64,000 nucleotides of DNA, from assembly GCA_010093815.1 (NCBI GenBank), contig ML996566.1, one strand, 5' to 3'. The notes under the pieces are model-generated. The model was not told the DNA's origin, ran no database searches, and saw only the letters and a list, made by a program, of their open reading frames with translations. Made by a program: the position numbers and the translations under genes. Position 1 is the first letter of the stretch. Each line of letters begins with the position of its first letter. This stretch comes from Pseudovirgaria hyperparasitica (taxonomy: Eukaryota). This document shows, piece by piece, positions 1-19,800 of the stretch.

Positions 1-470
1 ATATATATATAGCTTATATTATTATAGAGATTCTAGTAGTCTATATAGATAGTACTCTATTAAAATTAGAGTATAAGACTATTTTTAATATTAATATCTC
101 TTTATTAATAGAGAGAGAGAAAATATCTTTTATCTTTCTTAGTAGACCTATAGTAGAATTCTAAGAAGAGTATTATTCTAAAGTTTTATATAAGTATAGC
201 TATTATTAATAGCTATATATAGATTATCTTTTATCTAGAATCTAGTAGTCTATAGAGATAGTACCTTATTAAATTAAAAGTATTTAAACTTTAATACCTC
301 TTATAGATAGAACTAGAAGAAATATTCTTTATCTTTCTTAATAAATCTATAGTAGAATTCTATAAAGGGTATTATTCTAAAATTTTAAGAGAGTATAGCT
401 ATTACTAATAGCTATATATAGCTTATCTTATATAAAAAGTAGTAGTATTCTATATAAAGTTAACTAGTAT
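1..470. repeat. Degenerate ~200-bp tandem repeat (about 2.3 copies)
   Basis: 'tatctttctta..ctatagtagaattcta..gtattattctaaa..gtatagctatta.taatagctatatatag' at ~131-222 recurs at ~330-421. 'ctagtagtctata.agatagtac' occurs at ~33 and ~242. Confidence 0.7.
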
Positions 471-807
471 AGACTCTAAATTTAGTACTAAGCTATTTAT
501 ATACTATTTATATCTTATAAGTATAAATAGGGAGTTAATAATATATATATAGTCTATTCACGCCCTATTAATAAGTAAGTAAATACCTAGTATATAGCTA
601 CCTAATTAACTAGGGATATACCGGTCCTAGAGGGGTATAAATAATATACTAACTAGTAGACTAAACTATCTCTCCTATATACTCGACTATAAATCTAATA
701 TCTAAGGAGGTATAGAGATAGATAGAAGTTAATGTATAAACCGTAATAATAGACTAGAGAATAGTACCTAACTTACTATACGATTATATATATCGCGTCT
801 AGTCTAA

Positions 808-1183
808 AATAATAATGATTACTACCACAAGGTAATAATGAAAATCACTACTATAAGATAATAAGGATTACTACTACTACGGTAGTAATTATCATCACCA
901 CGACGGGGCTTATTCATAGTATGGTAGTTATCTACCCGGCACTAAGGGCATAGATATAAAGGGAGCTATCAACTAAGGAATTAAACTATCCTTCGTAAAT
1001 AACCTATAATAGGTTAAATAGGCGGATTCTCTTTAAAATCGTTAATTATAAAGGGTGTATAATCCATAACCTAATAGCGTGCGTTAAGTCTAGTCACGAA
1101 GGCCTATTAGGGGAGGGAGGGTAATGTACACGATAATAATAATAACTATTACTACGGAATAATAATAATTATTACCACGATGG
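808..1183. repeat. Two short arrays of ~24-bp semi-palindromic units near the left end of the element
   Basis: 808-908 has about 4 units such as ggtaataatgaaaatcactac and ggtagtaattatcatcacc. 1132-1183 has about 2 units. Both arrays end in ccacga(c/t)ggg. Confidence 0.6.
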
Positions 1184-1399
1184 GTGGTTAGGGAAGCCTA
1201 GTATCAAGAAATAGTTTCCTATGAGCCCGGTAGAAACAGGTCGGATAACGCTCACTTATAAGCGGTCCGCTTGTAGCTTAACCCTACGCTACTAAAGTTA
1301 AGACTATTATATGGTTTATTATATGCTATTCTAGACGACATATCTAGAAGGTTTACCGTTCTATGTACGCCGACGTACGGACCTATAAGAGTAGCGTTT

Positions 1400-3584
1400 G
1401 TAGTATATTAAATCTTAGGGTATTTAAAGGTTATAGAAGCGTCTAGAATCGGCGATTCTAGGTGCTTATTTATATTAAGTGATGAAGTTCGTAGATACGT
1501 ACGAAAATATAAAGAACTAAGAATTAATAAGACGGCTGAATGCCCACTCTTTTAGTATTACGGTCTAGCTATTAGTCTACGGCTATAGTATTATAGTTAT
1601 GGGCCTACCCTAGTACTAGATTATAATTTACTAATAACTACTTAAATCTTATACGCATGTCCGCACTTAAGAAAAACCCAACCCTTTAACTACTTAAGTC
1701 CATGTCAATATTATTAGGGTCGGTCGAATCTACCAATAAGGGCGGCGGGAAATCTAGGTTAGATCCAGGGAACGCTGTATCATAGTAAAGTTCTTAAACT
1801 ACGTGTTCGTCCTTAAAAGGGCCATAATTAGCAAGATACTATACCTAGGTAGTAAGCAGCCGGTCTTAGTTAATAATAATGCCACTATTAGGCATACTAG
1901 GCTATGTATCGATCGTTGGCTGTTTAGATAGATCTAAGATCCGCGACCTAGAATCACCCTTACCATCCGATACGATAGCATCAGTGCCCTTAGGAGATAT
2001 ATACGATAACGTGGTAGTAATAGTCGGTATAGTTAGCGTAATTAAAGGAAAAACAGGAGGAGGGTTAAGGTCCGTAGAAGGTCCTAGAATCGGCGATTCC
2101 ACACGTTCCTTAGAAATAGTACTAGAGTCTACGAGGGGGTCTAGGGGGTTTATCCATATAGTATTATCGGGCACATTATCTAAAACCTTAGAGGCGTCTA
2201 TAATCGCCAATTCTAGTGCCTCCTCTAGTATCTCATTACTAAGTTTAACGCGCTTAACGGCCTTACTTAAATCGCTATACGACGCTATACGCTTCTTCCT
2301 TATAGTTACTTCGGCTATAGAAGACTTTTCGGCGGTATCAGCTGGCGGCTTCATACGACGTAATAAATCCTCTTCGTCACTCTCGTCGACTTCCTTAGAC
2401 GGGTTAAGGTCGGGATCGTTATACTTTAGCTTATCCCGAACTTACTATGTGGCGAGCTAATACGTAAAGCTAATGTTAGACCAATAATCATAGAAAATTA
2501 GACGACCGAGCGACTCCCTAAGTTAGCAAAGTACGGCGAGTTATCGCTCCTAATAATTAGTAGAAGTCTCGAATCTAGGTTCTTTATATACGGGCTAGGC
2601 GAGCCGAAGACAAAGACCCTCTACGAGAATTTTAGGGCTCCACGTAAGTCTCTCGAGCCGCTTATAGGGTGGAATCAAACGGTAGTATTCCTTAGAGCTA
2701 TAGAAGTATAGATCGATGTAGATATTAGGTCTATAGCCGCCCGCTCTAGCGCCACCTAGTATATATATAATCTTCGCGATAAAAGTAAATCTAGTATAGA
2801 GCTTGCCTTAATTCTCGAGACGCGAAATTCTCTCCGCTATAGCTAACCAGAACTACATAACGTAGTAGTATCTAACCGAGCGGTAGATAATAGGTTTACC
2901 TATTACTAGTCGATCAATAAAGAAAGCTATCGCCTAAGGTCGTAGACACCTACTAGGAAGCTTTGGGTCGTTAGAGATTATAAAGTTACTATCGTTTTTT
3001 TTGCGCTTTGGCGCTTTGGCCTTTTTTATAGCTGCGGCTATAACTAGAGTAGTGCTAGTCGGCTTTACGGTATCGGTTTAGTTTACCTTTAATCTTTTCG
3101 ATGGCGTTCTAACTACTTTCCAGACTTTAGATTTTAACGGTATTCGCGGTAGTAGCAAGTTAGAGGCATCGGGTTCGGAATCCGGATTATTAGGAAGTTC
3201 GCCATCTATAGGCGGAGGTATAGAACCTAAATCATTAGTATTATCTTCGGGTTCCTTTACCGAAGATAGTTCCGTAGTAGAGTATAGCGTTTCTATAGTC
3301 GGCTCTTTTACTACTATACTATTCTTAAGTAGCGGTGCGGTCTTAGACGTTTTACCGGTCTTACTTATAATAGAATCGGCGGTATTTTTAGTCTTAGAAC
3401 CCTTCTTCTTCTTCTTCGCGGGGGATAGTTTATTAGTTACTAGAGGACGGGCTACCACGGCTCGACCATATATAACGTTATCCCTAATTATATCCTCAAC
3501 GAAACGTGTACGGTTAGTATAAACTTCCTAAGATAGAGCTAACTTAATACTAGCGGCGCGAGCCGCATGTACACGAGGTGTCAT
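1400..3584 (-). pseudogene. RIP-degraded orphan gene (Lys/Pro/Ser-rich, unknown function); 3' end uncertain
   Basis: ATG at 3584 (MTPRVHAARAA...) is in frame with ORF 3078-3458, which has a KKKKK basic patch. Coding-like sequence continues through ORF 1902-2354, probably across an intron near 2450-2500. Confidence 0.5.
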
Positions 3585-3614
3585 CGGTATATATTAGATA
3601 GGTAGTTCTACGGT

Positions 3615-3739
3615 AGACGGTTAGTATAGAACATATATATCTTAAGAAGGGCCTGGAATCGTCGATCGTAGACGGTTATAGGGAACATATATATCTTAAG
3701 AGGGGTCTAGAATCGTCGATCCTAGACGGTTATAGGGAA
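3615..3739. repeat. 54-bp tandem repeat (about 2.3 copies) containing the 19-bp palindrome
   Basis: agacggtta..g.aacatatatatcttaaga.ggg.ct(g/a)gaatcgtcgatc.t is repeated. The palindrome copies start at 3653 and 3707, 54 bp apart. Confidence 0.85.
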
Positions 3740-3879
3740 AGACTATAGAGTATATATAATAACGAATGCGCGGGTATTGGAATCGCTAATCCCAAGGATC
3801 ACTAAAGCCGGGATTTAATATACCTAGAAACTTAATAGCGCGCGTTTCGATCGACGGGAATACAATACTAAAGGATATT

Positions 3880-4556
3880 AGTAGATGATAGTAATTCGTA
3901 TGATTAGAAACCCACTAGACAATAGGTATAATATTAAGTATATCCTCCGCCAATAGCACGACGAGTAAGATATCAAATGGTATTTTATCATTATTAGAGT
4001 CCTCGAAAGCCATTCGTATACCGAGAAGGGTAGAATAGGCTCCGGCGTCTATAGCCCATCTATACTTCGATATTCTAAGGATAGGATAAAGAATCCGAGC
4101 GACGCTACTAACATCCGGGTCCTAATGATTAACCGTAGTTTCGACGATGCTTTTATACAAACCTCTTAGAACGTTACAACGTTTTTTTATATCCGACTTC
4201 GTCTTTACACATGTTAGTATAGCCACGTGTATAATGATTTTTATATTAAGATTATATGGCTCCATTACTAGAATTTCCTCAGATTCCAAAACCTTATAAT
4301 CCATGAGGGCGGCCACGAGTTCCGGACCGGCTCCTTTACGGATAACTACGTTAATACCACCGAAACGCTTAGCATCCAATTACCTCTACGTAGCGTTCAC
4401 CAAACAGACGTCCTTCTCTAGTATCTATATAATATTACCGACCACGAACTTTACGCTATTCATACGTGACGGTATTAGTTTTTTATAAGATTAATAGAAA
4501 CGATCGTTCCCTACTAGATTGTTCAGGTCTTAAAGTATCTATTAGGCATAGCATAT
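3880..4556 (-). pseudogene. RIP-degraded orphan gene
   Basis: ORF 4122-4379 extends in both directions through isolated TAG/TAA stops as protein-like sequence (...SRMNSVKFVVG... and ...DPDVSSVARILYP...RWAIDAGAYS...). Confidence 0.4.
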
Positions 4557-5399
4557 GGATCTAGAAGTTTTAGCCGGTTCCGAAGGTCTAGTATCTTCCA
4601 CGGGTGGCGGAGCTAATTATACCGCCTTCCCTTTTCCTTTGCTTAGCTTAGTCAGAAGGCTCTAATCGCCTACCATTTTATTAAACCTATATAATCTATT
4701 TAGAGGCGTCTATGAATTACGATTACTAATAAGATAAACGAACGAATTATAAGACTTATTAACGTATACAAGAGTAAGTAAGTTAATATAGAAGAGAAAA
4801 AATTATAAGGTGGTATATATTCATATACCTTCGTGCAAATACTAAGCTAGTCTTATTTAGGTAGTAACATTATAAAAGTGAATAGAGGTTAATGAACCGG
4901 ATACAATATAGATAAGTAGTAAAGTAAAGTAATACTAAGTAAATGAAATGAACCCTCCCTTACGTCGCGTAAGTCGGAATAACGTAATACTAGTTCGAAG
5001 CCTATACTTACGTATACTAAGATGTTACTAGAAGTAAAAGGCTGTCGGCGCTCAACGTTTCCAGACGCCTCTAGTACAGAGTAGAACCACGTTTTAAAGG
5101 TATAGAAAACGAGTATAGGAATACTTAACGGAGCGTATAAGACAGTATTAGAAATTATAATAATATTTAACTAGGCGTCGATTATGAAAGTAAGGAGATA
5201 TAATAAGCCATAAGGACGACCATCCTTATATAGACTATTAAAGGAAAGATACTAGTAGCCACGAACACAATAAAATAACCAGTAGAATATAAATACACGC
5301 TATTAAAGAAAAGTACCAACCATAGACGCGACTAGAAACGCCGATTCCAATCCCTCCTAGAAGATAGTTAAGCCTTACCATTATCTCCACCTATGTTTA

Positions 5400-8300
5400 T
5401 TAGTATCTCATCTATTATAAACTACTCTACTATATAAGTAGTCTAGTCCTTATTAACGAATCGTTCGGTAGCGTGTTCTATTAGGAAGAGGTCTTTATAG
5501 TCTTCGATTAACTATATTATACGGATCGTAGGCTCTAATATAGATCTTAATAATATTATTTTCTCGCTGGCTTCTCGTAGTAAATGGATCCTATCTCTAC
5601 TATCTACCTCGTCCTTACCATAACTATAGGCACTACGCTTGGTAGGGTCCTTATCTAGGCGGTTATTAGGGCGGCGCATAGTATTACTAATAATGTTAAA
5701 TGTACTAGTAGCCCTCTCCGTTAGATTAGTAACACCTAGCCCCTCGCTTTGGTTAATAACGATACCACGGTTGAATATTAGGAGGCGTTTTATAACTTTA
5801 AGCACGGGAATAGCCGTGGATTCCGGTTTATATAGCTTCTTAAACTCCGGATCGTCTTCATAGATAATTAGACCGAAATCATGGTATACATCTCTAATTA
5901 TAGGATACTAGCCCTTAAGGATAGACGGAATAATAATATCGAGAGTAGTGTCGAGGGTGCCGTCCACGAGACTAGATAGAGTAGTAAACATCTTAGGTAA
6001 TGCTCGGCGAGTCATGGCCATGGACATTTTAGATGCCCATGTGTTTAGCATGTAGTACTTAGAAAGCAGGGTCGGTAAGAGCTATTTAAGTCGAAATATG
6101 CGACCTAAGAGCTGCCGTAGAAGAGCGAGATTAGCTGGATAAGAAAAGAAATGAACATTTCTATTCGCCTTCTATAAATTAAAACTAACCCCTATAATTC
6201 CGTATATATTAACGAACCAATCGATCCGGGAGGGAACTCTATTAATGTCGTCCTAATGGGTATTATCGCCGTCTAAGAACGCACTAGGATTAGCGATTCT
6301 AGGCGCCTCTAGTAGGTCGTCCTTATTACCGGCAATGTCGTTAGGCGTGGTCTTATTAAAGGTAGAGTCTATCTTCTAGTTGAATAGTCTATACTTTTAT
6401 TATCTAGTTAGCGCGTCGTCTTCGGTAAAGACACGTCCGACGTACTTAAAGCCTATTAGCCGTAACATATAATATACTAACTCACGCTTAATAGAATATT
6501 ACACCCATACGATGCCCTTCTCCTGGTACTTAAAGTACTACGTTATAGCTTATATAGCGAGTACTACGAGCCGAGGGGACCAGTTAAATAGAATACCTAG
6601 TAGTGCCACTAGCACGTTCTCTACTTCGTTAACTAGCTTAGTAAGTCCACTCTTAGGATGGCTTCGATCACGAGCTTAGGCGATATTTAGTAGGAAAGCG
6701 TATATCTAACGCGGGCTTACGTTCTTAGAGCCAGGACGAGGGAATTTTAGCTTCTATTCATTATCTTTCCTTAACGCTACTATGTCCCTACGCATGAAAA
6801 AGTGTGAATACCTAATATAGATAATAGTAGATATTAGTACTAAGTTCCGCTGTATGCGGAGTTCAGGCTTAATTCCGAGGGTCGGTGAGGATTCGGCTAA
6901 ATAAGCTTCTTTTGGGTCTCCTTACTAATCTTATCGTACTTAGCCTACACCTCTAGTAGATACGCTACTTTAATCTATACCCTTTCGGCCCGCGGAATAT
7001 AGTTACGGATTAAAGTAGCATTATTATCGCTATACCGTAAGTCGTTCGTGCGGCGAAGTATAAATACTCCGTATATTATACTTAAGTACTAGCCTTATAC
7101 TAGCTCTAATGGCGGCTTAGGATCATTACGGCCGGAACCTAGGTACTAGTACTTAAAGGCCGGAGAAGTTAGATATATACCTAGGACGCGATCTAGTTTT
7201 TCCTACGAAACGTCCGGATATAGTCTTACTATTATCGATAGAAACTTATATAGGTTAGACTTCGCCTTGAATGGCGGCTGTATACCGGAAATACCGTTAA
7301 AATAATCGTTAAGGGATGCGCTCTATTATATAACTTTAAGAAGACCCTATATATTACTAGTAAAGTTATAGACGGGAGTACTAGTCACGAGGACGTAGTA
7401 TTTAATATTAAGCTCGTAGATGGACCGGTTAGTCGTAGAGTTAATATTCCGGAAGCCGTATACTTCGTTAGCTACCGTATAGTCGAAGCACTAAGCGAGG
7501 TTCCAAGGGGCATCATATAGAAAATACTACTTCTCTATATATTTCATTTCTACTAATGCGACGGCGTCCTAATTTCTAGATTTAATGTTCTAGAACTCCG
7601 CGTACCCTCATATTTTCTCTCTCTACCTAGTAAGGCTATAACGGGCGTTAAACGTTGCGTAGGACATTAAGATAATAGTACGGGCGTTAATCTCCTCCGG
7701 TCTAAAGTACTAACTCTTCTATATTAAGATACCTACTAAACGCGTAGTACTAGTAGCTGATTTCCCGACCCTACTATTACCGTAACTAGTAATGACACGG
7801 AAGAGCGAGGAAAAGTCCGTAATCTACTCGGCGGTTTAGGTAAGAAGATTTACGGGTACTAATAGTAGGGCGGGCTTCGGAGAAGATACTAGAATACCCT
7901 TCTCGCGATTAGTGATGCGCTCGTTAATTAACTACATTTTAGTTAGATATATATAGGCGCGTCTAGAATCGGCGATTCTAGAGGCCACTAGGGGAAGGAA
8001 CTTACATGTAGCTAGTGCGCTAAAAGTGTAAATGTTTTACCTAGTCCGACACCATCTACTAATACTACACCCCGTGAAACTAAACTATCCATGCTCTTTC
8101 GGAGCTACTAAGCTCCTATAAGTTACTACTAATATAGAGTAACGCTAGGATTTATATTAAGAATCTAAGGTTTTCGGGTACTAGTAACTCGGAGACCCAC
8201 CGCGGCTATAACATAGTCTTATGGTTGGGCGGCGCCGTTATTACTCTAGTTATTTAACCAATCCTATAGTTTACTTCTCTTCTCGCTACCCGACTTTAAC

Positions 8301-9853
8301 TAATCCATAATTAGTACTATATTACTAAGATCCGTGTTAATGCGTGCGGTGATTACCGCCTTATTATTATTTACTTAAATAACCTCGTTAGTTTTAATCT
8401 CGGAGATCTTTTAAGTACCGCTTAAGCCCTTTATAAGATTCTTAATAGTAAGGTAAGAGTAGTACGGACACGTTTCTAGTTTAAGATAATCCGGATTAAC
8501 GACGTTACGATCCTTATAAGTTACTATAAGCATGGCCTAGAGCTCTTCTTTGGAGGGGAGACTCTCGAGATATAATCTAGCGAACACACGCCGATCGCCT
8601 ATATTAATGCCCTCGTCTTCGACTATAAATTCTAGATTATTATAGGTATCTATTAATACTCCCGATGGATTTAGACCGTGTTTCTATATATTAGTCCACG
8701 CTTTAGTATGGTACTCGGGTAATTTTTTCCTTAGTGCCTTTATAGGCTTTAAGGAACGTTTTAGTTTTACTAGGGTAGCTATAGGTCCTTCTTTTATAGT
8801 AGTATCTAGTATAGCTAGTGCGTCTAGCATGGGTGCGTCGAGGAGCGAGTTCGGATCTATTACTTAGATGTCTTCTATCGGGTCCTAATCTATAGTATCG
8901 CTAGTATTCTTACTAAGTTCCCTATTCCGGTTAGTGGTAGAGTTACCATCGGCGGCTTAGTGTTAATCTAAACGCCTTCTAGCTTTTTTCTTAGAAGGGC
9001 CTATAATCGTCGATCCTAGACGGGCCTATAGAGTGATTAGTAGATGAGTAGGGGGAACCTAGTTAGTAGGAACTTTCCGAGGCATTATAGACATCTACCT
9101 CGCGTTAGTATAGATAATTTTCATACGAAAGTTATCCTCGTATTCTTGCCCTTAGTTACGGGCATGGCGTCGGTATTTAAGTATATCGTTAAATAGAAGA
9201 TATTTATCGTTCTCCGATATACGCATTCGCGAAAGAGGATTCGTACGATTAGAAGATAGCTTAAGATCTATCCGGAGAATAAGAGACGCGCGCCACTAGT
9301 AATCTTCCTATTTACTACGACTAGCGGCTATTACTATAAGGTAATGGGCACGGTCTTCTTTAATAAGTTCTATAGCTAAAGTAAACTAGCTAAACGGATG
9401 CGAACCTTCTAGAATCCACGGGTTAAAGAACTCTACATAGTATTCATTAAGTAAGGCGTTAACTTTAGGATCCTAGAATAAAATGGCTGCTTTAACCACG
9501 CTAATTCCGAGGTTAGAGGTAATCTTACTAAGGCGACGGTCCTTTTCTAGCCTAGGTTCCTTTTTACGCTCCTATCTAGCCTCTTTTCCCGGCTTTGGCT
9601 CGATAGATGCGCCTTTTCCTACTTCGCCTGCTTCCTCCTCTATAGTAGCGACCTTAAGAAATCGCTCTATGGCTTTAGAATTATAGTCTATTAAGCTACT
9701 ACCTACGATAAGAGCGGATAAGGTGGTATATTTCTTCTATAACGCTGCTCTGGTTTCGCGAATCTCTTTAGTAGCTATATCTAAAAACGGATCGAGAAAA
9801 TTATTATCTTCTTTCTCTTATGCTTAAATATTAACTAGAAGAAAAGGAGCCAT
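5400..9853 (-). pseudogene. SNF2/SWI2-family helicase-like ATPase, RIP-inactivated (the N-terminal part may be a separate gene)
   Basis: Motifs in order: Walker A RGVVL(V/A)DGVGLGKT (~8030-8075); GTAAGT..CTAAC..TAG intron ~7932-8005; Ia KPALLLVPVNLL (~7850); motif II ANEVYGFRN = A[D]E[AH]GFRN (~7460); III VLVT(S/G)TPVYN (~7380); EKGIVWV (~6510); V GVSFNL*KAN (~6175); VI RQLLGRIFRL (~6100). Confidence 0.85.
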
Positions 9854-10350
9854 GATCTCTAGAAGGGTCTGTAAACGGCGATCGGTGGGTTAAATATATA
9901 TATATCGAAAAAATGAGATTACGTAAGAAAATAGTAAAATGATATAGGAGAGATGGAGAGAGTTAATGGAAATAATATATATAAATATATATTTTGGGTC
10001 TTATCACGTGTTATTACATAACCTTCTTATGTTACGTTATAACGTGTTACAAGTGAAGTGAATTAACCTATCGGTTTTATTAGAAATTCCAGCCCCTACT
10101 CTAGAAATCGCTATTTATAGGGTGCCCTATAGTTAAGGTCGTAGATTCTAGTTCTTATACTCTTATACTAAATGCGTAACTACGTTACTAGGAGAATTCT
10201 TTTCACGTCTCCCTCTTTATATTCTATTTAATATAGGGCGACGTGGATTAAGAGTACTAACTTATGGACGTTATCTATAGGCATTAAGATACTCTATAGA
10301 CTTTATATACTTCTAGACTTAAACTATAATAACTATAAATTCTACCGACC

Positions 10351-13300
10351 CTATCGACTAACATCTATAACTAGTGGAGTACCCTAATTAAATTCTAGAA
10401 TAGCATTCGTAATTTCATACGCCCCCTCTCGCCGCTTACGCTATAGCTAACGGGCTAATTCACTAGAGTCCCATGCACCTTCTCTTATTACCATTGGTAG
10501 TTGGCCCGTTTTCGAAATTCCAAACCCTTCTAACCGGGTAGCCTATTATCTAGATAGGTGGACTACTATTACGCTAAGAGCTCGATATAAACCAAATTTC
10601 TATATATACTTAATATTTCCCGGGAGCCGACGGAACCCTAGTTATCCCTCCAGTCTAGGCTCCCACCACGGATATAGAATTTATAGCTAGTAATAGGTGA
10701 AGTAGTACACGTGTTTGGGCATGATATTACTCTTTCGCATTTGGTCGGCTAGTACACGCTTAACCATGTCTATAAGTCGTCTATTATCTAAGTAGTACGT
10801 AGTATAGACTCCACTATTAGTACCGCATACATCGTAATAACTGGCCTACCATCGTCTCTACTCGGATAATAACTAGACGAGACTTATATATTATCTATTT
10901 TATAGACGACGTTCTTATGCTACCAGTTTCATAGACTATTATTATATAAACATTCGTTGATTATAAGTGTCCTCGCCCACGTAATCTTCGTCTAGACACG
11001 CACTAGGAAGTTCTAATACCCGCCCTTTCGCTGGTCTTCCTGCCTCGTCTATACTATTACCATGTACACGTGCTTATTTCATCTTATTCCACGTATAAGG
11101 CGGCTGGCGCGACGGTTAATTGGTCTAGGGTAGGTCGGGTTAACTATTTAAGGAACCCATAGGTGAGCTACTAGGAAGGTCTAGGATCGCCGATTCTAGA
11201 TCCTCCTAGAGGGTCTCTAAATGTAGTAGGAATGTTAATAGGGTAGGATCGCATACATCGTACTTCTCTTTAACCCCGTTATAGCTCTTTCTACTAAACG
11301 ACCCGTCGAGATACTCGTCTAGGAACACCCTACGACACCCTATCTAGTTTATATAAGTAAGTATCATCGCGTTCTTAGTAGTGGCTTCTTCTATCTTTAC
11401 GAAGATAGCGAGGCTTCTCGTTAGGTAGTCGCGACCGGCCCGGCCGCTTTCTTATATATAGTCTAGGAATGAAGAAGGAGCGCCTAAGTGTATCACGACG
11501 CGAATAGTAGCTAGGTTAACACCTAGGCCGAGAGCGTTTATAGTAACTATGATACCTTCTTCTTCGGCGATAAATCCGTTAAGGACCTACTCCTTAGCTA
11601 TACTCTCTTAATAGTACGCATTATAACCAAGCTCCCCTACGAGGCTAATAGCTTACGTGACCATAGGCGTAAAGACGAGACATCTACCGGTAATGCCCTA
11701 TCTAATACGTCGCACGTATTCCGCTTAACTACGGGTACCTCGAGCCTTCTTAGGTAGGCTCCTAAGCGTATACGTAATATTAGGCCGAGTTATAGCTTCG
11801 CGGTGGATGAATACATCTCTAGCGTTTATATATATGGCTTTCTATAGCCCTACTTTATCATCGGGTGGTAGGGTTATACTTAGGAGTATAATCTACACCT
11901 CTAGGTTAACTATTATTTAGATGTCGCGAAAGGCCGGCCGGAACTAGTTATTATTAATGATATAGTGGTACTTATCGATAATCACACGGTCGAGTAGTCC
12001 TAGGCTATTTATATGGTTTATAAACTATATGAACGGTTCGCCTTTTATAGACTCGGGCGTAATAATAATAATAGATATCCCGTAAGGGGGGTGCGTAGGG
12101 TCGAATGCTTCTATAGTAATACTACTATTATAATAACGGCGGATAAGGTTATCTCGAAGGGCCTTTAGCGGGATAATAACTAGTATTACTCTATCTAGTA
12201 CTATTAACGCAGCTAATATGAAAGGTAGACTTTTACCTAAGGTAGTCGGCTATATAACTAGTATCGGACTACGGCCTTCGACTAGCCCGGTAAATACCTT
12301 TTCTTATTAGGGTTATATTCTAGCGTTTTCATTACGGAGTACGACCTTAATAGTCTTATACGGGTCCTTCTCCCGGAGTGCAGCCTAATGGTAAGCCCGT
12401 GCTTATAAAATTCGTGTCTAGCTAGGTGTAACCTTATCGAACATAGATACCCCGATCTCGTGCTACTATACGCGACTAATCTAGAAGTACCTCTCTATTA
12501 CCGTCTTTACCGCACTAAACGGGCTACTTATATCACGACTATACGCGATCTAGATAATCTTTATACTATGACTAGCTTACTTATTAAGGATAGCGGTTAG
12601 ACTATTATCTCGGGTACCCGGATTCTAGTCCTCGTTCTATAGACTATTCTTATTAGCCTCGTCTATATAGTTAATCTCGTACTTCTAAAGCTTACGCTTT
12701 ATAATTGTAATCACGACTTAACGATAGTCTATAATACCCATGTTAACTACTCCTATACTAAGATGTATCTATTCCCTTATCGCATGGCTTATACGCTCGC
12801 TAGTCTAGTACGGTAATAGCTATATATGTATAGGGACGACTATCTATGTTAGATCCATGAATCTCTCGAGTTATTCCTTCCACGGGATAACTAACCAAAG
12901 ATACCATATTAGAATATTATATACGACCGGCGGTAGATATCGAAGAATTAGGCGGATATCTCCTTTACGTATATACCCTTTATGGTACTTTATTATAATG
13001 TAAAGCTTATTACTATAAAGAATAATATTACGTATATCACCCTATCGCGTGTTACGGTACCGTATACTTAGGATTTCTAGTCCGCGTGTAGGCTGTCTAG
13101 CTATTATATAGATAAGAATAAGTAGCTAACTAAGAAAGACTCGAATCTATTCGAGCTAGTCTTATGCTTTTTGTGTATCTAACTCTCCTCTGGTAAAGAA
13201 CGCTAACTGTATATTCTAGTCCTTTTTAACTCGCCTTCTAAACCATGAGGACTACTCCTAGAGGCACGCTAACTAAAGGAAGCTATACCTGATTATGTTA

Positions 13301-14991
13301 TCAGCCGTATTATCCGTAAGTAACTACCATAGAATTACTAGTACTCCCTCTATAGAAGATAGTAGAAGAATATTAGTATATAATGTTCGCGCTATTCGAT
13401 TTATTAAGCTAGAGACTATCCCTCTAAATGCATTTATTAGAATTATATGTGCATTATACGTAAGTGTATTATTAACCTACTGTATCTTTACGTCTATGGC
13501 TATGTTACCCACGATTTTAAGACCGTAAGCTCTAAGTTATATCTACTATCTAACTATACCGCGACTACCGCGGAGGAGATACTAGTTAATAAATGGTGAG
13601 AGATATCTAAGGATATCTATAGTACCACCCGCTTACTTATAGAAGACTTCCTAGATGGCCTACTTAAGGATAATAAGGCGGGAGAACTTAATAAGTACTA
13701 ATAGAGTAGACGTATAGTTCTATGGTGAAAGGAAGCCCCCGTTTCGATCTATATATAGTAGGCCGGATAATGGGACTAGTGCGGCCTCGAATAAGTATAT
13801 ATATAGCGTCTATTATAGTAATATAATGATAAGCTATATATAAAGGTAGGCGATGCGAGAAAGAGGGCGGGTTTAGATACTAAACACCTCGTATAGTTTT
13901 ACCCGACGTGTTTCCAGATCCCACTTACTAAGATTACCTTCTACTCTATAATAGTTATTAGTTATACTCGTCTCGGGTTTAGAGTCGGAGCTACTATTAC
14001 TCTCGCCGGATGGCTATTCCGTAGTAATATAGTCTAGAAGCCGAGTAATACACGCCTTAGTCTTAGCGTTAAAGACTAAAGCTAGGAGGTAGTAGAGATT
14101 CTAGTACGCTTAGATGGCCCCGATAATAAGACGCTAAAGATGCTTCGAGTAATCGCGGAATATTTTCTAGTTCTAATAACGTGCGAGAGGTCGCTATAGC
14201 CTAGGCTCTATTATAGAACGCGCTACTTCTAGGCATAGTAGTCTATTATAAGCGCCTACTATCTTATAGGCTTAGTAGAATAGAACTCTTAGACTAGATA
14301 ATACTATCTTTAGCGGCCCTTCGGTAGATATCTCTAGGATATTAGTAAGTGCGAGGATATCCATGCCTTAGAAGTAGTTAATAAATTTTATGCGTTCTAG
14401 CCATGGATTAACTTTGTCGATAGCGCCGGTTTATACTATATAACCTTCATCTTTAAGGACGTTCTACTAATTTAACTAGAGCTAATCGAGTGTGGTATTA
14501 ATTAGTATATGAGTGTATATAGTGGTACGTGTTATAATCGGGATGAGGCGGTTCAACCGGCCTATATTATATAGGTATTAGTATGGTATATTATCTCTAT
14601 ATCCACGTATCTTATCATCCGCTCTAGGTGGAGCCCCCCTACGCCTATTAAAGAACGCTACATGTTCGTTTTTAATATGTGATTTAAGATTCTTTAAAAG
14701 GCTAAGAACTAATCCGTAGTTCTCGATAATATATTAGAACCCTCTCTTAACCGGAATATATCTTATAGGCCGTGATAGGGCAGCGGGTATTCGAAGGTCG
14801 TCGATTATAGTAGCGGTATAACTAAGCGAGTAAATATAGCTTTTAATAATCTTATGATACTTCGGTCTTATTCCTCGGTATTCTTAAAGGAGGTGGCGGT
14901 CTAGCGCGGATAGGAGGATGGCGCGCTTATAATCTCGATAGATAATTACTCCGGTATCAAGGTCGACGACTAGTAGTAAATCTATAGACAT
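10351..14991 (-). pseudogene. DUF3505/telomere-linked-helicase-type protein: Zn-finger-like N-terminus + tyrosine-recombinase-like core + RecQ-like DExH helicase + Cys-rich C-terminus, RIP-inactivated
   Basis: One frame at all points sampled from ATG 14991. In order: II[C]RD[C]KRAIL..LDRHL; NPWLER; [G]QP[A]RG[P]EILSIRYRN..RNI..KYHKG..RYLP..WYLWLVIP; DYR[Q]; [D]K[Q]A[G]HS..AY[G]R; SPILVI*PTT.GKSLPF; IITPES; LDRVIID[EC]H; ALGLGVN; Y.[Q]ESGRAGRD; CRRVFLDEYLDG; [C]DVC. Brackets are RIP reversions. Confidence 0.9.
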
Positions 14992-15099
14992 CTATATATA
15001 TTCGTATAGTATTAGTAGATTAGCGTCGGGAGTAGACTATGATATATATAATTATATTCCTATAGATAGGTGTGGAAACGGCGATTCTAGACGGCTCTA

Positions 15100-16830
15100 G
15101 AGTAAGGAGTTTTTAGGTCCTTTGGTTTTCGACGGCCGTGCCGTAGGAAATCAATAGCTACTACTAGCCCCGATCTTCGGCTAAGGTATTCTACTATTAG
15201 TATAGTCGCTACTAAATTAGTGTATTTTATTCTCTAATCTACCTTATCATTATCTATAGTACGCATGTCCTATGGCGTACTTAGCCCTAGGCTATGGTCT
15301 TATAGATTAATTAGATTTATAAACTACTCTAGCGCTATATTCATAATATTTTCTAAGGTTATTCTCTCGATCGGGAACTACCTAGGTAGCGTAATGTCTC
15401 CATTTAAAATCTAATATAAATATAGCTTAACACCATAATAAAGTCGTCTAAGCCATAGATAACATCGGTCTACAAGGCCTAGGAAGTCCTCTAGTATACT
15501 AACCCTTATCTTCTAGAAGAAAGAGTCCGTAATTTCGGGTGGTAGTAGAACGAATAACCCGTCGCTAAACCTCTCGCGGATTAACGCCTAGTGCGCGCTA
15601 TAACTTAACCAATCGTTCATTTATTTCTACTGTCTTATCCGCTTAAAGGCCTCCCCTTACTATATATATATATTAATATCTAGGTCCTACGGTTATTCTA
15701 GACTTGGCGTATAATCTCCTATGAGTTGATTAATACGGGCATATAGGCGAGCCTTTATAATTAACCGGATGCCTTGCCTAGTACTAAGGGTGAATGTGCG
15801 GTCTGTTTTCAGTGCCTCCTTAGTAGCGTTTATAGCTTTATATATATCCGCGAGTGCTAGGCGACGTCTAATCCCGATAAGACGCGATGTGTATACTAGC
15901 TTAACGATCTTAAAGTAGAGTATACTAGCCTAGTCTATGAATATACGTACTAAGCGTTCCCTAGTCAACGTCGTATCCCTAATAATAATCTATAGGGGAT
16001 TAAGGCTATAAGACGCTATATCTACCGTCTTACTATCTCGCTATTCTTATATAAGTAATCTAAAGTAAAGTAGCGTTAACGGTAAACCAATCTCTAATGC
16101 GCGATTAAGAAGTTATCTAACTATGTTTATATCTTTAGGGAAGTATTATAATATGCCTATCTAATAAAGATAACTTACATTTATATAGAGCTATACTTTA
16201 TATTTATTCCGTGACGACGGGCTATCGGGGTTAGTAAATGACTCTATAACCTCCCTAAGCATAGCCTCATACTTTACTCTTAACTTAGCCCGGATTTTAT
16301 TACTTACTCTCGTGGTCGTTAGCGGAGTTCTCGTAGTTAACTATTCGTTCTAGTTAGATGTATCGTTACGGCGCCACTTTCTAGGGGGATTTATAGACTA
16401 ACGCTCTTCTTCGTCGTCCTCTTCTCGCTCTTAATCAGTATTATAGACTATTATCTCTAGTTATGCTAGTACTATACGAAGAGCTACCGTGGTGCTAGAA
16501 GTTATATAAGATTATTAAGAGGGTAGGGGAGATGTCGGAGGCGGCGGGCATGTATTAGGAACGAAATCGTCTTCTTTATTATTATTAGGTAAGTCGTTAT
16601 TCATATTAGTAACGTGTAAATAGGCTAGAATCTATTGCTCGTTTAGCTAACGAGCCGCTACCTCTAGTAATCGTACGATAAATAGTGGCGGGCTAGGAAA
16701 CGATAACGGTTGGAAGAAGACGGCTTAAGCTCTATCGCTCCCGCCGATAGGGAAAAGTTTAAATATAATGTCCTATGCTTAACGTATACTATCTATATTA
16801 GGGAGCGGTACTAAGGGGGGTGCTATAGCT
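15100..16830 (-). pseudogene. RIP-degraded orphan gene (~550 codons), unknown function
   Basis: Long protein-like frame broken by TAA/TAG: AVFFQPLSFPSPP, Pro-rich and acidic linkers (EREEDDEEER), and RERF(S/G)DGLFVLLPPEI near 15550. Confidence 0.5.
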
Positions 16831-19800
16831 TATAAAGTTCGTAAGTAGTAGAATAGATTAGAATCGGCGATCCTAGAGGTGTCTTAGAGTACACGATTCT
16901 ATAAGGATTACTAAGGTCCTTAGACGTATGCGTAGGTCGGCGTGTAGTATACCTAGGTACCGATCGCGCACGGTTGGGAAAATCAAAGTAAAAATCGCGA
17001 AAAATACGTAGTTTTTATGTATACTCTTCGCTACCCCCTCCGTGAAAATAATAATTATAAGTTAGCTAGATATAACTTTCGACCATGCGATTTCTTAATA
17101 TATAAAAATTATTCGGATGTAGGCGTGGGAAGGGCTGCCTTTCGACTCTACCTTACGGTGTCTTTTAACTACCTAGTTTTCCTACTAAGAGTCGTGCATG
17201 GTTACCGCCTAGGCCCGTATAATGTTCTTTCGTATATCGAAAGAACGGCTCCTAATTGTTAGCGTTCATTCGCTTATAAAAAAGGATCACTTGTACGTAG
17301 TTATATACTATGGTGCGGCTTCGGCCCTTTAGCGCCTAGGACATAGCCCGGCCATCAGCGTCGGTGCGTTTTAGGTACCGCTGCTCGAGGCATGCGCGCG
17401 TCGCGCTATAGTAGCGCACGGCGTTTAAGCGTGCTAATGCCGGTAGGGTAGGCCCTATGGTACTTCCGCACGGCCCGTGGTGTATACTTTACGCACAAGC
17501 CTATATCCTTAGATAGAAAAATGTAACATGTCTACATTCATAGCGATTCTCGGCCAGAACGTGACTAGGTAACTATAGAATAATTTAGAATAACTACGCA
17601 TTCTAGTCGGAGGTTAGTATTATAACCGACCGACGCTTTCACCTATAAAAGAATAATAAATCTTAGTCCCTAATGAGCCTTTAAGGCGAAAGACATCTAT
17701 TAGTTTATACCTAGCTATCTAGGACTTCTATTACTTATTACTTTTCCTTAACGATTTCTCCCTGCTTTAAATAACCCTAGAAGTAGAAGTACTAATTACC
17801 GCGATAGTTATATCTAATTCCTTCCGCTAGTTCTTATTTAGTATAGTATAGAGCTTTATAATATAAGTCTCTAGCCTTTCGTTCTAATACTATAAATTCT
17901 ATATAGCGTGCCTTATAGCTATAAACTTCTCTATAGAAATCTATAGGGCGGCGGGACCTAGAATAGAGAGAGATAGACTAGCGCGGGCACGCTAAGAATT
18001 ATATAAATTAGCGAAAAGATTTAACGATCGGTATAGAACTATATACCTTTAGTATAGAAACTTCTAGATTAGAGCTATCTTCTCTAAATTTATAGCTCTT
18101 TAGTATATATAAGAAAGGAACCTTAGCCTTTTTACTAGAACCTTTTCTAGAAATTTTAATATTACTAGTATATAGAAAGAAGTCTAAAGTAGTAGAGATT
18201 TTAGTACTATTATAGAGATTAATATATATTAGTAAGAATCTATAATGATTTAAGAAAATAATATTATCTAGTAATTATAGTAATAATAGCTATAGTAGAT
18301 TCTAATAAATCCTTATAGATCTTATTAGAATCGTACTTCTAGGTATAACTCTTACCTTAGATATATAGCTCGTAGAAAGCCTTCTCTAAGGCGTTATAAT
18401 CGGTAGTACTACGCTCCTTATTAGTAGGGGTTACTAGAGGCCTAGTAGTAATCTATACTAATATAAGTAAATCTACGTAAAGTTCTTTAAACTTACTTAA
18501 ATATCTATAAGTAATAATACTTCTTAGTTATATAAGTACTATATATTATAGATTTAGTACTACTATAAGTAATATATAATAGAAAGCGATAACTATAATA
18601 ATATATAGCTAGATTATTAGAGCCTGGCCTAGGTTAGGGTAGATTAATAGCTTTTAATATATCGGTAATATATACGAGATAGAGATTATTTAAAGGCGTC
18701 TATTTCTATACTAATTACTTTAGAGCGTTAAGATTTCGGGAAGCTATATTATAATTATTACTAATTTATATAGATTATTATAAATTATACTATTACTAGC
18801 TAAGGATGGTATAAAAATTAGTAAATTACGTAAATTATACTAAATTATAGTAAATCTATATAAATCTATATCTATAAGAATTAGGTAATATATCTAATAA
18901 TCTAAAAAACTCTATAAAGAGTTAAGAAGTTTTTTAAAGAAAGGAATATTTCTAAGAAAAGATTTTAATATAGGTAGTACCTAGACTTACCTAATTATAT
19001 TACGTGATACGCTAGGCCTAATTAGGTAATCTTATCTATATAAGAAGTTAGGATAGATAAAATCTAGTTTATTAGGAAAATACTTATATAAATCTTAGAT
19101 TAGTAAATATTAGTAAATATCTAAGACGAAGTATAGAGAATAACTAAGGTCTTATAAGACTTAGAATAGGGATATAGAGATAGATAATAATCTAGGTTAC
19201 TAAGGGTAGCTTCCTAGAGAGAAGGGATAATTATTAGAACTTAGTCTTAGGTAGAACCTAATCTATATATACCTTAGCTAATAGAGTTAGGAGATAACGT
19301 AAAGGGCGGTAAATAGTTATATACTAGATAGATTAGCGTCCCTTTATATATATACTCTTAGATTTCTACTAAAAGAGTTCGGTAGTAATTCGTTCTATAA
19401 TAGAATACACCCTATTATTCTATCTAACTACACTACTATCTAATAACCCTATTCTTATATATAGAGTGGTTTACGAAGATAAGAACTTTCTATTATTTAC
19501 TATTTTATATTTAAATAGATAGCGTGAATACTTACTTTAGAGTCTAAGTAGAAGTAATTAAACTATAATAAACCTTCTCTAATAAGGATGCGGCTTATCT
19601 CTAAAGTAGTCTATTATATAGAGTATTCTAGCTTTTCTAAAGGTAAAGGTACTTAGAGAGCTTAGAAGAGTATAAGTAGATTTATAATAAGTATTAATAG
19701 AGTATAAATAGTAACTAGCTAGTAGGCGAGTAAAGTAGTAATTATATTAGTATAAGTTTAAATTAATTACTATAGAACTATCTCTAGAGATCGGGTCTAA

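Follow-up and report, generated by a model that had tools for sequence, protein, structure and literature searches.

We analyzed a 64,000-nucleotide stretch of contig ML996566.1 of the fungus Pseudovirgaria hyperparasitica (GenBank assembly GCA_010093815.1), referred to as a whole as the window. Bases 1-21000 of the window have been altered by repeat-induced point mutation (RIP), the remainder being ordinary genic DNA, and contain an element that resembles fungal telomere-linked helicase (TLH) regions in its architecture. This 17-kb element, which is of a known subtelomeric kind, carries a palindrome at 15 sites; the palindrome is a genuine cis-motif whose occurrence is not random. Its pattern of variation makes it highly probable that the motif is an odd-centered site of about 37 bp, bound as double-stranded DNA by a dimeric, sequence-specific protein, and this protein is probably encoded by the element. 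The explanation we favor, to which we give about four chances in ten, is by analogy with a plant system: the palindromes would serve as operator-like sites through which a protein encoded by the element keeps the element active, and an unrelated clade of long interspersed nuclear elements (LINEs) would have borrowed them.

Twelve sites match the core pattern CTRGAATCGNCGATTCYAG with up to three mismatches (0.09 expected in the window; 12 or more matches were reached in none of 100 shuffles). A RIP-aware scan added site 3777, and a weight matrix detected the last two, at 9869 and, one-sided, at 5046-5064. Only the site at 5046 is new with respect to an earlier annotation (the sequence-only reading), all of whose listed sites were recovered. 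The pre-RIP consensus deduced in that annotation is equally borne out, as the core CTGGAATCGNCGATTCCAG is present unmutated in another copy of the element, on contig C10. Alignment of 26 half-sites yields the consensus TAG-AAG-SGY-CTGGAATCG. Columns -9 to -1 are informative (column -8 is A in 25 of the 26 half-sites and column -7 is G in 23), while columns -22 to -13 are not, and no sequence is common to the sites beyond column -12. The GAGGCGT- or AAGGG-like flank seen earlier beside several copies is thus part of the motif. Half-site information spans columns -9 to +9, and the full site therefore covers about 37 bp around one free central base; the 19 bp first proposed describe the core only. 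The best weight-matrix score in the window outside the element is 5.8 bits.

Departures from the core that cannot be ascribed to RIP fall repeatedly on the same columns (A5G seven times, G4T three times, T7A three times; p=1e-5 against a random distribution); in only 2 of 24 cases does the opposite arm show the matching change. The two flanks of a site show no more similarity to each other than do shuffled pairs (p=0.88). Recurrent columns and unmirrored departures together point to the degenerate site of a symmetric protein rather than to a stem. The same conclusion is supported by the range of contexts in which the motif occurs (introns, intergenic DNA and two or more reading frames) and by the absence of any consistent target-site duplication at the sites; the intronic position claimed earlier for site 7963 was confirmed. 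Ten of the 15 sites are non-coding, compared with about 19% of the DNA on a rough gene map (p 8e-5, or 0.005 if the 3653-3777 cluster is coding). Three lie just upstream of the likely starts of an open reading frame (ORF) called ORF-A, of the TLH-like gene and of an SNF2-type gene, and the 3.9-kb folded core of the helicase gene is devoid of sites. We looked for even spacing of the sites and found none; their spacing is random-like.

Across the genome, 165 sites are found at one mismatch or less, as against none for a reversed-pattern control. Only 29 of them lie in the five copies of the element, and the 136 others were examined in part. The earlier statement that the motif is not seen outside the element is therefore correct for the window and incorrect for the genome. 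Among 50 perfect sites that were fetched, 41 belong to a LINE clade and 9 to the element; 18 further genome sites comprise 16 in LINEs and two weak host matches. Distinct sites scoring at least 20 bits number 128 in 923 kb of fetched DNA, a partly redundant and repeat-enriched set, with 55 in the element and 73 in LINEs. Searches leaving out LINE-type flanks returned element copies in 25 of 26, 23 of 23 and 20 of 20 cases, the one exception being the fifth LINE subfamily. Host single-copy DNA thus essentially lacks the motif, but the motif is not exclusive to the element, since the LINE clade holds most of its genomic copies.

Each LINE of this clade carries one site, located in ORF2 in the linker between endonuclease and reverse transcriptase, where it reads DLES(A/T)IPD. 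Five subfamilies, 62-73% alike, have it. The site of an intact LINE scores 38.9 bits, one flank included, on a matrix derived exclusively from sites of the element, whereas the maximum in 18 Mb of simulated DNA is 18.2. Of 30 LINE-like loci retrieved with a protein query, 27 contain the site; among the others, L170 is a different family that covers the linker, and the matches of L172 and L174 are confined to sequence downstream of the linker. The peptide at the site aligns without insertion in 43 homologues and is poorly conserved among them, its L and P being the preferred residues of the family (51% each). The two subfamily differences within the site fall on the center and on the tolerated A5G column.

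Several other features of these LINEs were observed. One copy, L150 (G000:C52:7933-11931), is nearly free of RIP and has the site together with open ORF1 (486 aa) and ORF2 (925 aa), its relatives being heavily RIP-mutated. L170 (G000:C105) and L172 (G000:C39) provide further stop-free LINE stretches, the former from the family without the motif. In some subfamilies an additional half-site, single and scoring 16-22 bits, is located about 1.5 kb downstream (L175:1754, L189:3647), and in some a weak overlapping palindrome adjoins the main site. In metagenome contigs, the exact motif has 20 single matches, none with a second copy or with TLH or LINE homology and none repeat- or fungus-borne, which we take as chance matches or terminators. 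No DNA of TLH relatives was found in viral or prokaryote collections. Among sequencing runs, matches were listed for two DNA runs of a single sample and for no RNA run; two runs labeled as the same species had no match, a negative that carries no weight.

Which protein would bind the motif is suggested by the genes of the element, which are all on the minus strand and all broken: ORF-A, an OrsD-RecQ helicase, SNF2, and a macrodomain ORF with a downstream ORF (Table 1). In the TLH-like protein, DEAD and Helicase_C domains are found in the window, and the family profile matches RecQ structures first. OrsD falls below the cut-off in the RIP-mutated window copy (E 0.004), where several cysteines are eroded by RIP, and reaches E 1.5e-19 in the relative P0001, which matches the protein over 93% (E 4e-103). 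A second relative, P0136, is 27% identical (E 8e-46). A conserved domain upstream of the helicase occupies the position described in the portions available of 10.1101/2024.02.27.582403; the label TLH-like refers to this architecture.

This central domain is predicted to fold like a tyrosine recombinase. The central region of P0136 has 3664 homologous clusters, and its model (pLDDT 85) retrieved in an unbiased fold search a top 30 made up of Xer, Cre, integrases, topoisomerase IB, telomere resolvases, Ndc10 and their kin, with a best match at Z 11.2 and a root-mean-square deviation of 2.7 over 168 residues; Foldseek with the same model gave no match at E<=0.001. The residues R, K, R, H and Y are conserved in 109/109, 109/109, 106/106, 104/105 and 102/103 family members, respectively, and are kept in the window copy. 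They stand in catalytic order with an H-to-Y spacing of 9 and may correspond to the R-K-(H)-R-H/W-Y active site of tyrosine recombinases. Structures of Ndc10, MrpR and SroF are among the fold matches. These three are recombinase-fold DNA binders that bind without cutting.

With a zinc-finger-like OrsD and a recombinase-like domain in the TLH-like protein, and host single-copy DNA essentially without the motif, a binder encoded by the element is plausible. The binder proposed by the sequence-only reading is retained: dimeric on the pattern of variation, element-encoded as plausible. The TLH protein would be the most likely candidate, since its zinc-finger-like and recombinase-like parts are the only recognizable DNA-binding modules.

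The other element proteins are less informative. The macrodomain is recognized in the C10 copy (Pfam Macro, E 2e-8), and the database gene models P0277 and P0278 join its ORF with the downstream ORF, whose only matches are gene models of P. hyperparasitica. The nearest named proteins, at 89-94% identity, are likewise gene models of this species. ORF-A has no Pfam or PDB match in sequence searches, to which its analysis was confined, language-model and fold searches not having been made. None of the element proteins scanned has a Starship or Crypton Pfam match.

Five copies of the element were assembled, in the window (contig C2) and on C1, C3, C10 and C31. They are 90-95% identical, and more than 99% of their differences are transitions. 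A comparison of summed contig depth with single-variant depth gives a rough hint of a few more copies. All five are at most about 13 kb away from a contig end, with their genes pointing outward; no tandem telomere repeats were seen beside any of them in the contig-end stretches, which contain gaps. Every copy stops at the base matching window position 17262 and is followed by unrelated DNA. Two copies are joined to a high-copy 1.7-kb repeat in its middle part, and each of them has its last AG in common with the intact repeat. The window copy continues into sequence found on C20 after a telomere tract, with no clear sharing of AG, so that AG is shared in two of the three junctions that have a reference. 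The left end is lost in a tandem array, insertions and gaps. The copies align colinearly, neither they nor the contigs examined show a deletion or inversion between sites, and the element end does not coincide with a palindrome; of the role in recombination suggested earlier, use of the sites as crossovers is therefore not supported.

Additional observations concern the surroundings of the element. Window 17263-17779 matches G000:C20:104-621, 9 bp after the telomere tract, and the element may have inserted at what was formerly a chromosome end. Window 17778-19460 is the high-copy, RIP-mutated 1.7-kb repeat inside which two element copies end. A diverged, gene-less version (L223, G000:C15:907453-910588) combines a right-end segment with the left tandem array and has its end 9 bp earlier; it retains 136 bp of the right end and has no palindrome. 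The terminal bases of the element in its C10 copy, corresponding to window 17252-17260, have nine letters in common with the start of HAR-D in the available portion of the Magnaporthe oryzae source, probably by chance.

Table 1. Positions of the element, its palindromic sites and its genes in the window
Feature	Position	Strand	Remarks
RIP-mutated TLH-type element	1..17262		left limit open in ~200-bp tandem array; right end sharp at 17262
AT-rich ~200-bp tandem array	4..495		contig-end side; also in gene-less C15 derivative
Palindrome core	1443..1461		downstream of last ORF; full unit ~9 bp longer on each side
Palindrome core	2084..2102		in coding frame, reads VESPIP
Palindrome core	2198..2216		in coding frame
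Palindrome core	3653..3671		first unit of 54-bp tandem duplication, probable intron
Palindrome core	3707..3725		second unit of 54-bp tandem duplication
Weaker palindrome core	3777..3795		probable intron
One-sided site, one strong half-site	5046..5064	-	intergenic
Palindrome core	5332..5350		intergenic, after SNF2
Palindrome core	6284..6302		SNF2 coding DNA, in another frame than the remaining coding sites
Palindrome core	7963..7981		inside 74-nt intron 7932-8005 (GTAAGT..CTAAC..TAG)
Palindrome core	9001..9019		SNF2 N-terminal coding DNA
Asymmetric site	9869..9887		~15 bp upstream of SNF2 ATG
Palindrome core	11181..11199		TLH gene, linker after helicase domain
Palindrome core	15072..15090		~80 bp upstream of likely TLH start
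Palindrome core	16858..16876		~250 bp upstream of ORF-A
Broken macrodomain ORF and downstream ORF	1750..4560	-	possibly one gene, intron ~3823 to 3540
Broken SNF2-type helicase gene with introns	5430..9853 (approximate)	-	Pfam SNF2-rel_dom E 0.0014, below curated cut-off
Broken TLH-like gene	10390..15000 (approximate)	-	OrsD (zinc-finger-like), tyrosine-recombinase-like domain and RecQ helicase; from Pfam and relatives
Broken ORF-A	15150..16620	-	no family found

Under the operator explanation, a dimeric protein, most likely the TLH protein of the element, would bind the odd-centered operator on double-stranded DNA. The sites would have arisen singly, by substitution and small tandem duplication, and their positions next to gene starts, within introns and in protein linkers that tolerate change would leave all 16 kb tagged. 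Once bound, the protein would not cut; by analogy with VANC and VANDAL elements, it may maintain an open, transcribed state of the element although the chromatin at chromosome ends is silenced, and the SNF2 and macrodomain proteins carried as cargo would be the likely effectors. Such a role would come near to the marking of the element as 'self' that the sequence-only reading suggested. The LINE clade, with its full site in the endonuclease-reverse transcriptase linker, would then profit as a hitch-hiker.

Several observations weigh against this explanation. All five copies are dead and the assembly holds no intact helicase copy. RIP is flat with distance from the sites, with no sign of protection near them. 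Instead of the TLH protein, the product of ORF-A or of the ORF that follows the macrodomain could bind the motif. The two matches in host single-copy DNA, weak as they are (4 mismatches), also count here. As for the LINE site, it ranks only in the top 7-9% of windows for constraint in three subfamilies and in the top 6% by transversions across five; these ranks are subject to ascertainment bias, as the subfamilies were mostly found via the motif, and an earlier, cruder alignment ranked the site higher. From these alignments, constraint at the DNA level is no more than suggestive. The LINE site is also able to fold as a 15-bp stem.

The same element-encoded protein might instead use the sites in an architectural role during movement, for loading, pairing of copies or tethering to chromosome ends, with cutting at the element end only. 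We consider this unlikely, while giving it more weight than the other alternatives. The near-invariant R-K-R-H-Y set, present in the window copy, would fit such a role, as would the stop of five copies at one base before unrelated DNA, the last AG being shared with the target in both junctions with an intact reference, and the retention of both end regions by the gene-less derivative. However, the nearest site is some 390 bp from the element end, neither deletions nor inversions link sites whose spacing is random-like, the derivative lacks any site, the third junction (C2 versus C20) shows no AG sharing, and the LINE site is left without a reason. Slightly less likely still is a host protein, such as an activator, a boundary factor or a nuclear-periphery tether, which both repeat families came to use. 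It would account for two unrelated families without cross-talk, and the LINE site is older than subfamilies that are only 62-73% alike whereas the element copies are young; yet a host factor with so long a site should have targets in host single-copy DNA, where two weak matches are all we found, and none of the exact metagenome matches is repeat- or fungus-borne.

It is improbable that the element sites are functional and the LINE match neutral, as an old capture or through constraint on protein or RNA. LINE conservation not clearly above background, the preferred L and P residues and the possible stem would agree with this, but the out-of-sample score of 38.9 bits, flank included, is far beyond chance, and subfamily differences fall where the motif tolerates them, with no insertion in the protein. 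Hairpins or cruciforms, or relics of a tiny insertion element, are very improbable and already largely refuted: although folding is strong for the best sites (z -4.3 and -3.2), those at 5332 and 9001 fold no better than shuffles and changes are uncompensated. Relics of an insertion element or of a miniature inverted-repeat transposable element, the latter with its own target-site duplications having been named in the sequence-only reading as a refuting case, are contradicted by the absence of consistent duplications, of shared sequence past column -12 and of an insertion in the LINE protein. A peptide motif as the cause of the palindrome was likewise rejected, given the pattern of variation and the poorly conserved LINE peptide.

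Among known systems, the fungal TLH regions are closest: the M. oryzae TLH1 region with its HARs, Fusarium oxysporum TLHcr and Botrytis BcTLH. As far as the available portions of the sources describe them (10.1101/2023.02.05.527183, 10.1101/2024.02.27.582403, 10.1101/2022.03.07.483234), these share a gene combining OrsD/C2H2, a central domain and RecQ, multiple copies near chromosome ends with the gene toward the end, tandem arrays and discrete boundaries. Unlike them, our element also has SNF2, a macrodomain and ORF-A, its palindrome is scattered over genes and introns instead of forming arrays, and no telomere tract was seen beside its copies. HAR-D of the M. oryzae region contains a repeated 23-bp palindrome, of different sequence and of the same odd-centered form (11+1+11 with one mismatch), in the available portion of PMC1635262. 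There, and in that of 10.1101/2024.02.27.582403, the role of the TLH gene is described as unknown. The word recombinase does not occur in the searchable text of 10.1101/2024.02.27.582403 and PMC8381367. In the literature within reach, outside which lie most subscription papers and preprint supplements, we could not find a link between TLH and recombinases or a description of the motif; its sharing with an unrelated LINE and the recombinase-like fold of a TLH-type protein thus appear to be undescribed so far.

Starships and Cryptons, which are tyrosine-recombinase elements, resemble our element in fold, in the order of catalytic residues and in a sharp end with short target identity. They differ in that the recombinase-like domain here is fused to zinc fingers and RecQ and is not the first gene at the element end, with one end defined. 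A parallel for the motif itself is VANC in the VANDAL elements of Arabidopsis: an element-specific, many-copy motif that is mainly non-coding, expands by tandem repeats and is also found in an unrelated transposon, according to the available portion of PMC5735166. Our motif is likewise dense in the element, mainly non-coding and, LINEs excepted, rare elsewhere. In contrast, VANC motifs are 8-9 bp long, in the same orientation and in Mutator-like elements, whereas ours is a palindrome of about 37 bp in a fungal helicase element, with a putative function; homology to VANC is not expected.

We suggest as a possibility, which we regard as somewhat doubtful, that TLH regions form a class of recombinase-helicase selfish elements, each with a zinc-finger/tyrosine-recombinase/RecQ protein that reads a long, lineage-specific palindrome dispersed over the DNA of the element, and that the LINE here evolved the same operator in its coding sequence to exploit that protein. 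In any case, a recombinase-like fold and a concrete candidate DNA site make it testable whether TLH regions are mobile and what the TLH protein binds. To our knowledge, plant VANC is so far the only case in which one transposon exploits the cis-tag of another; a long operator common to a DNA element and an unrelated retrotransposon, if true, would be a fungal one.

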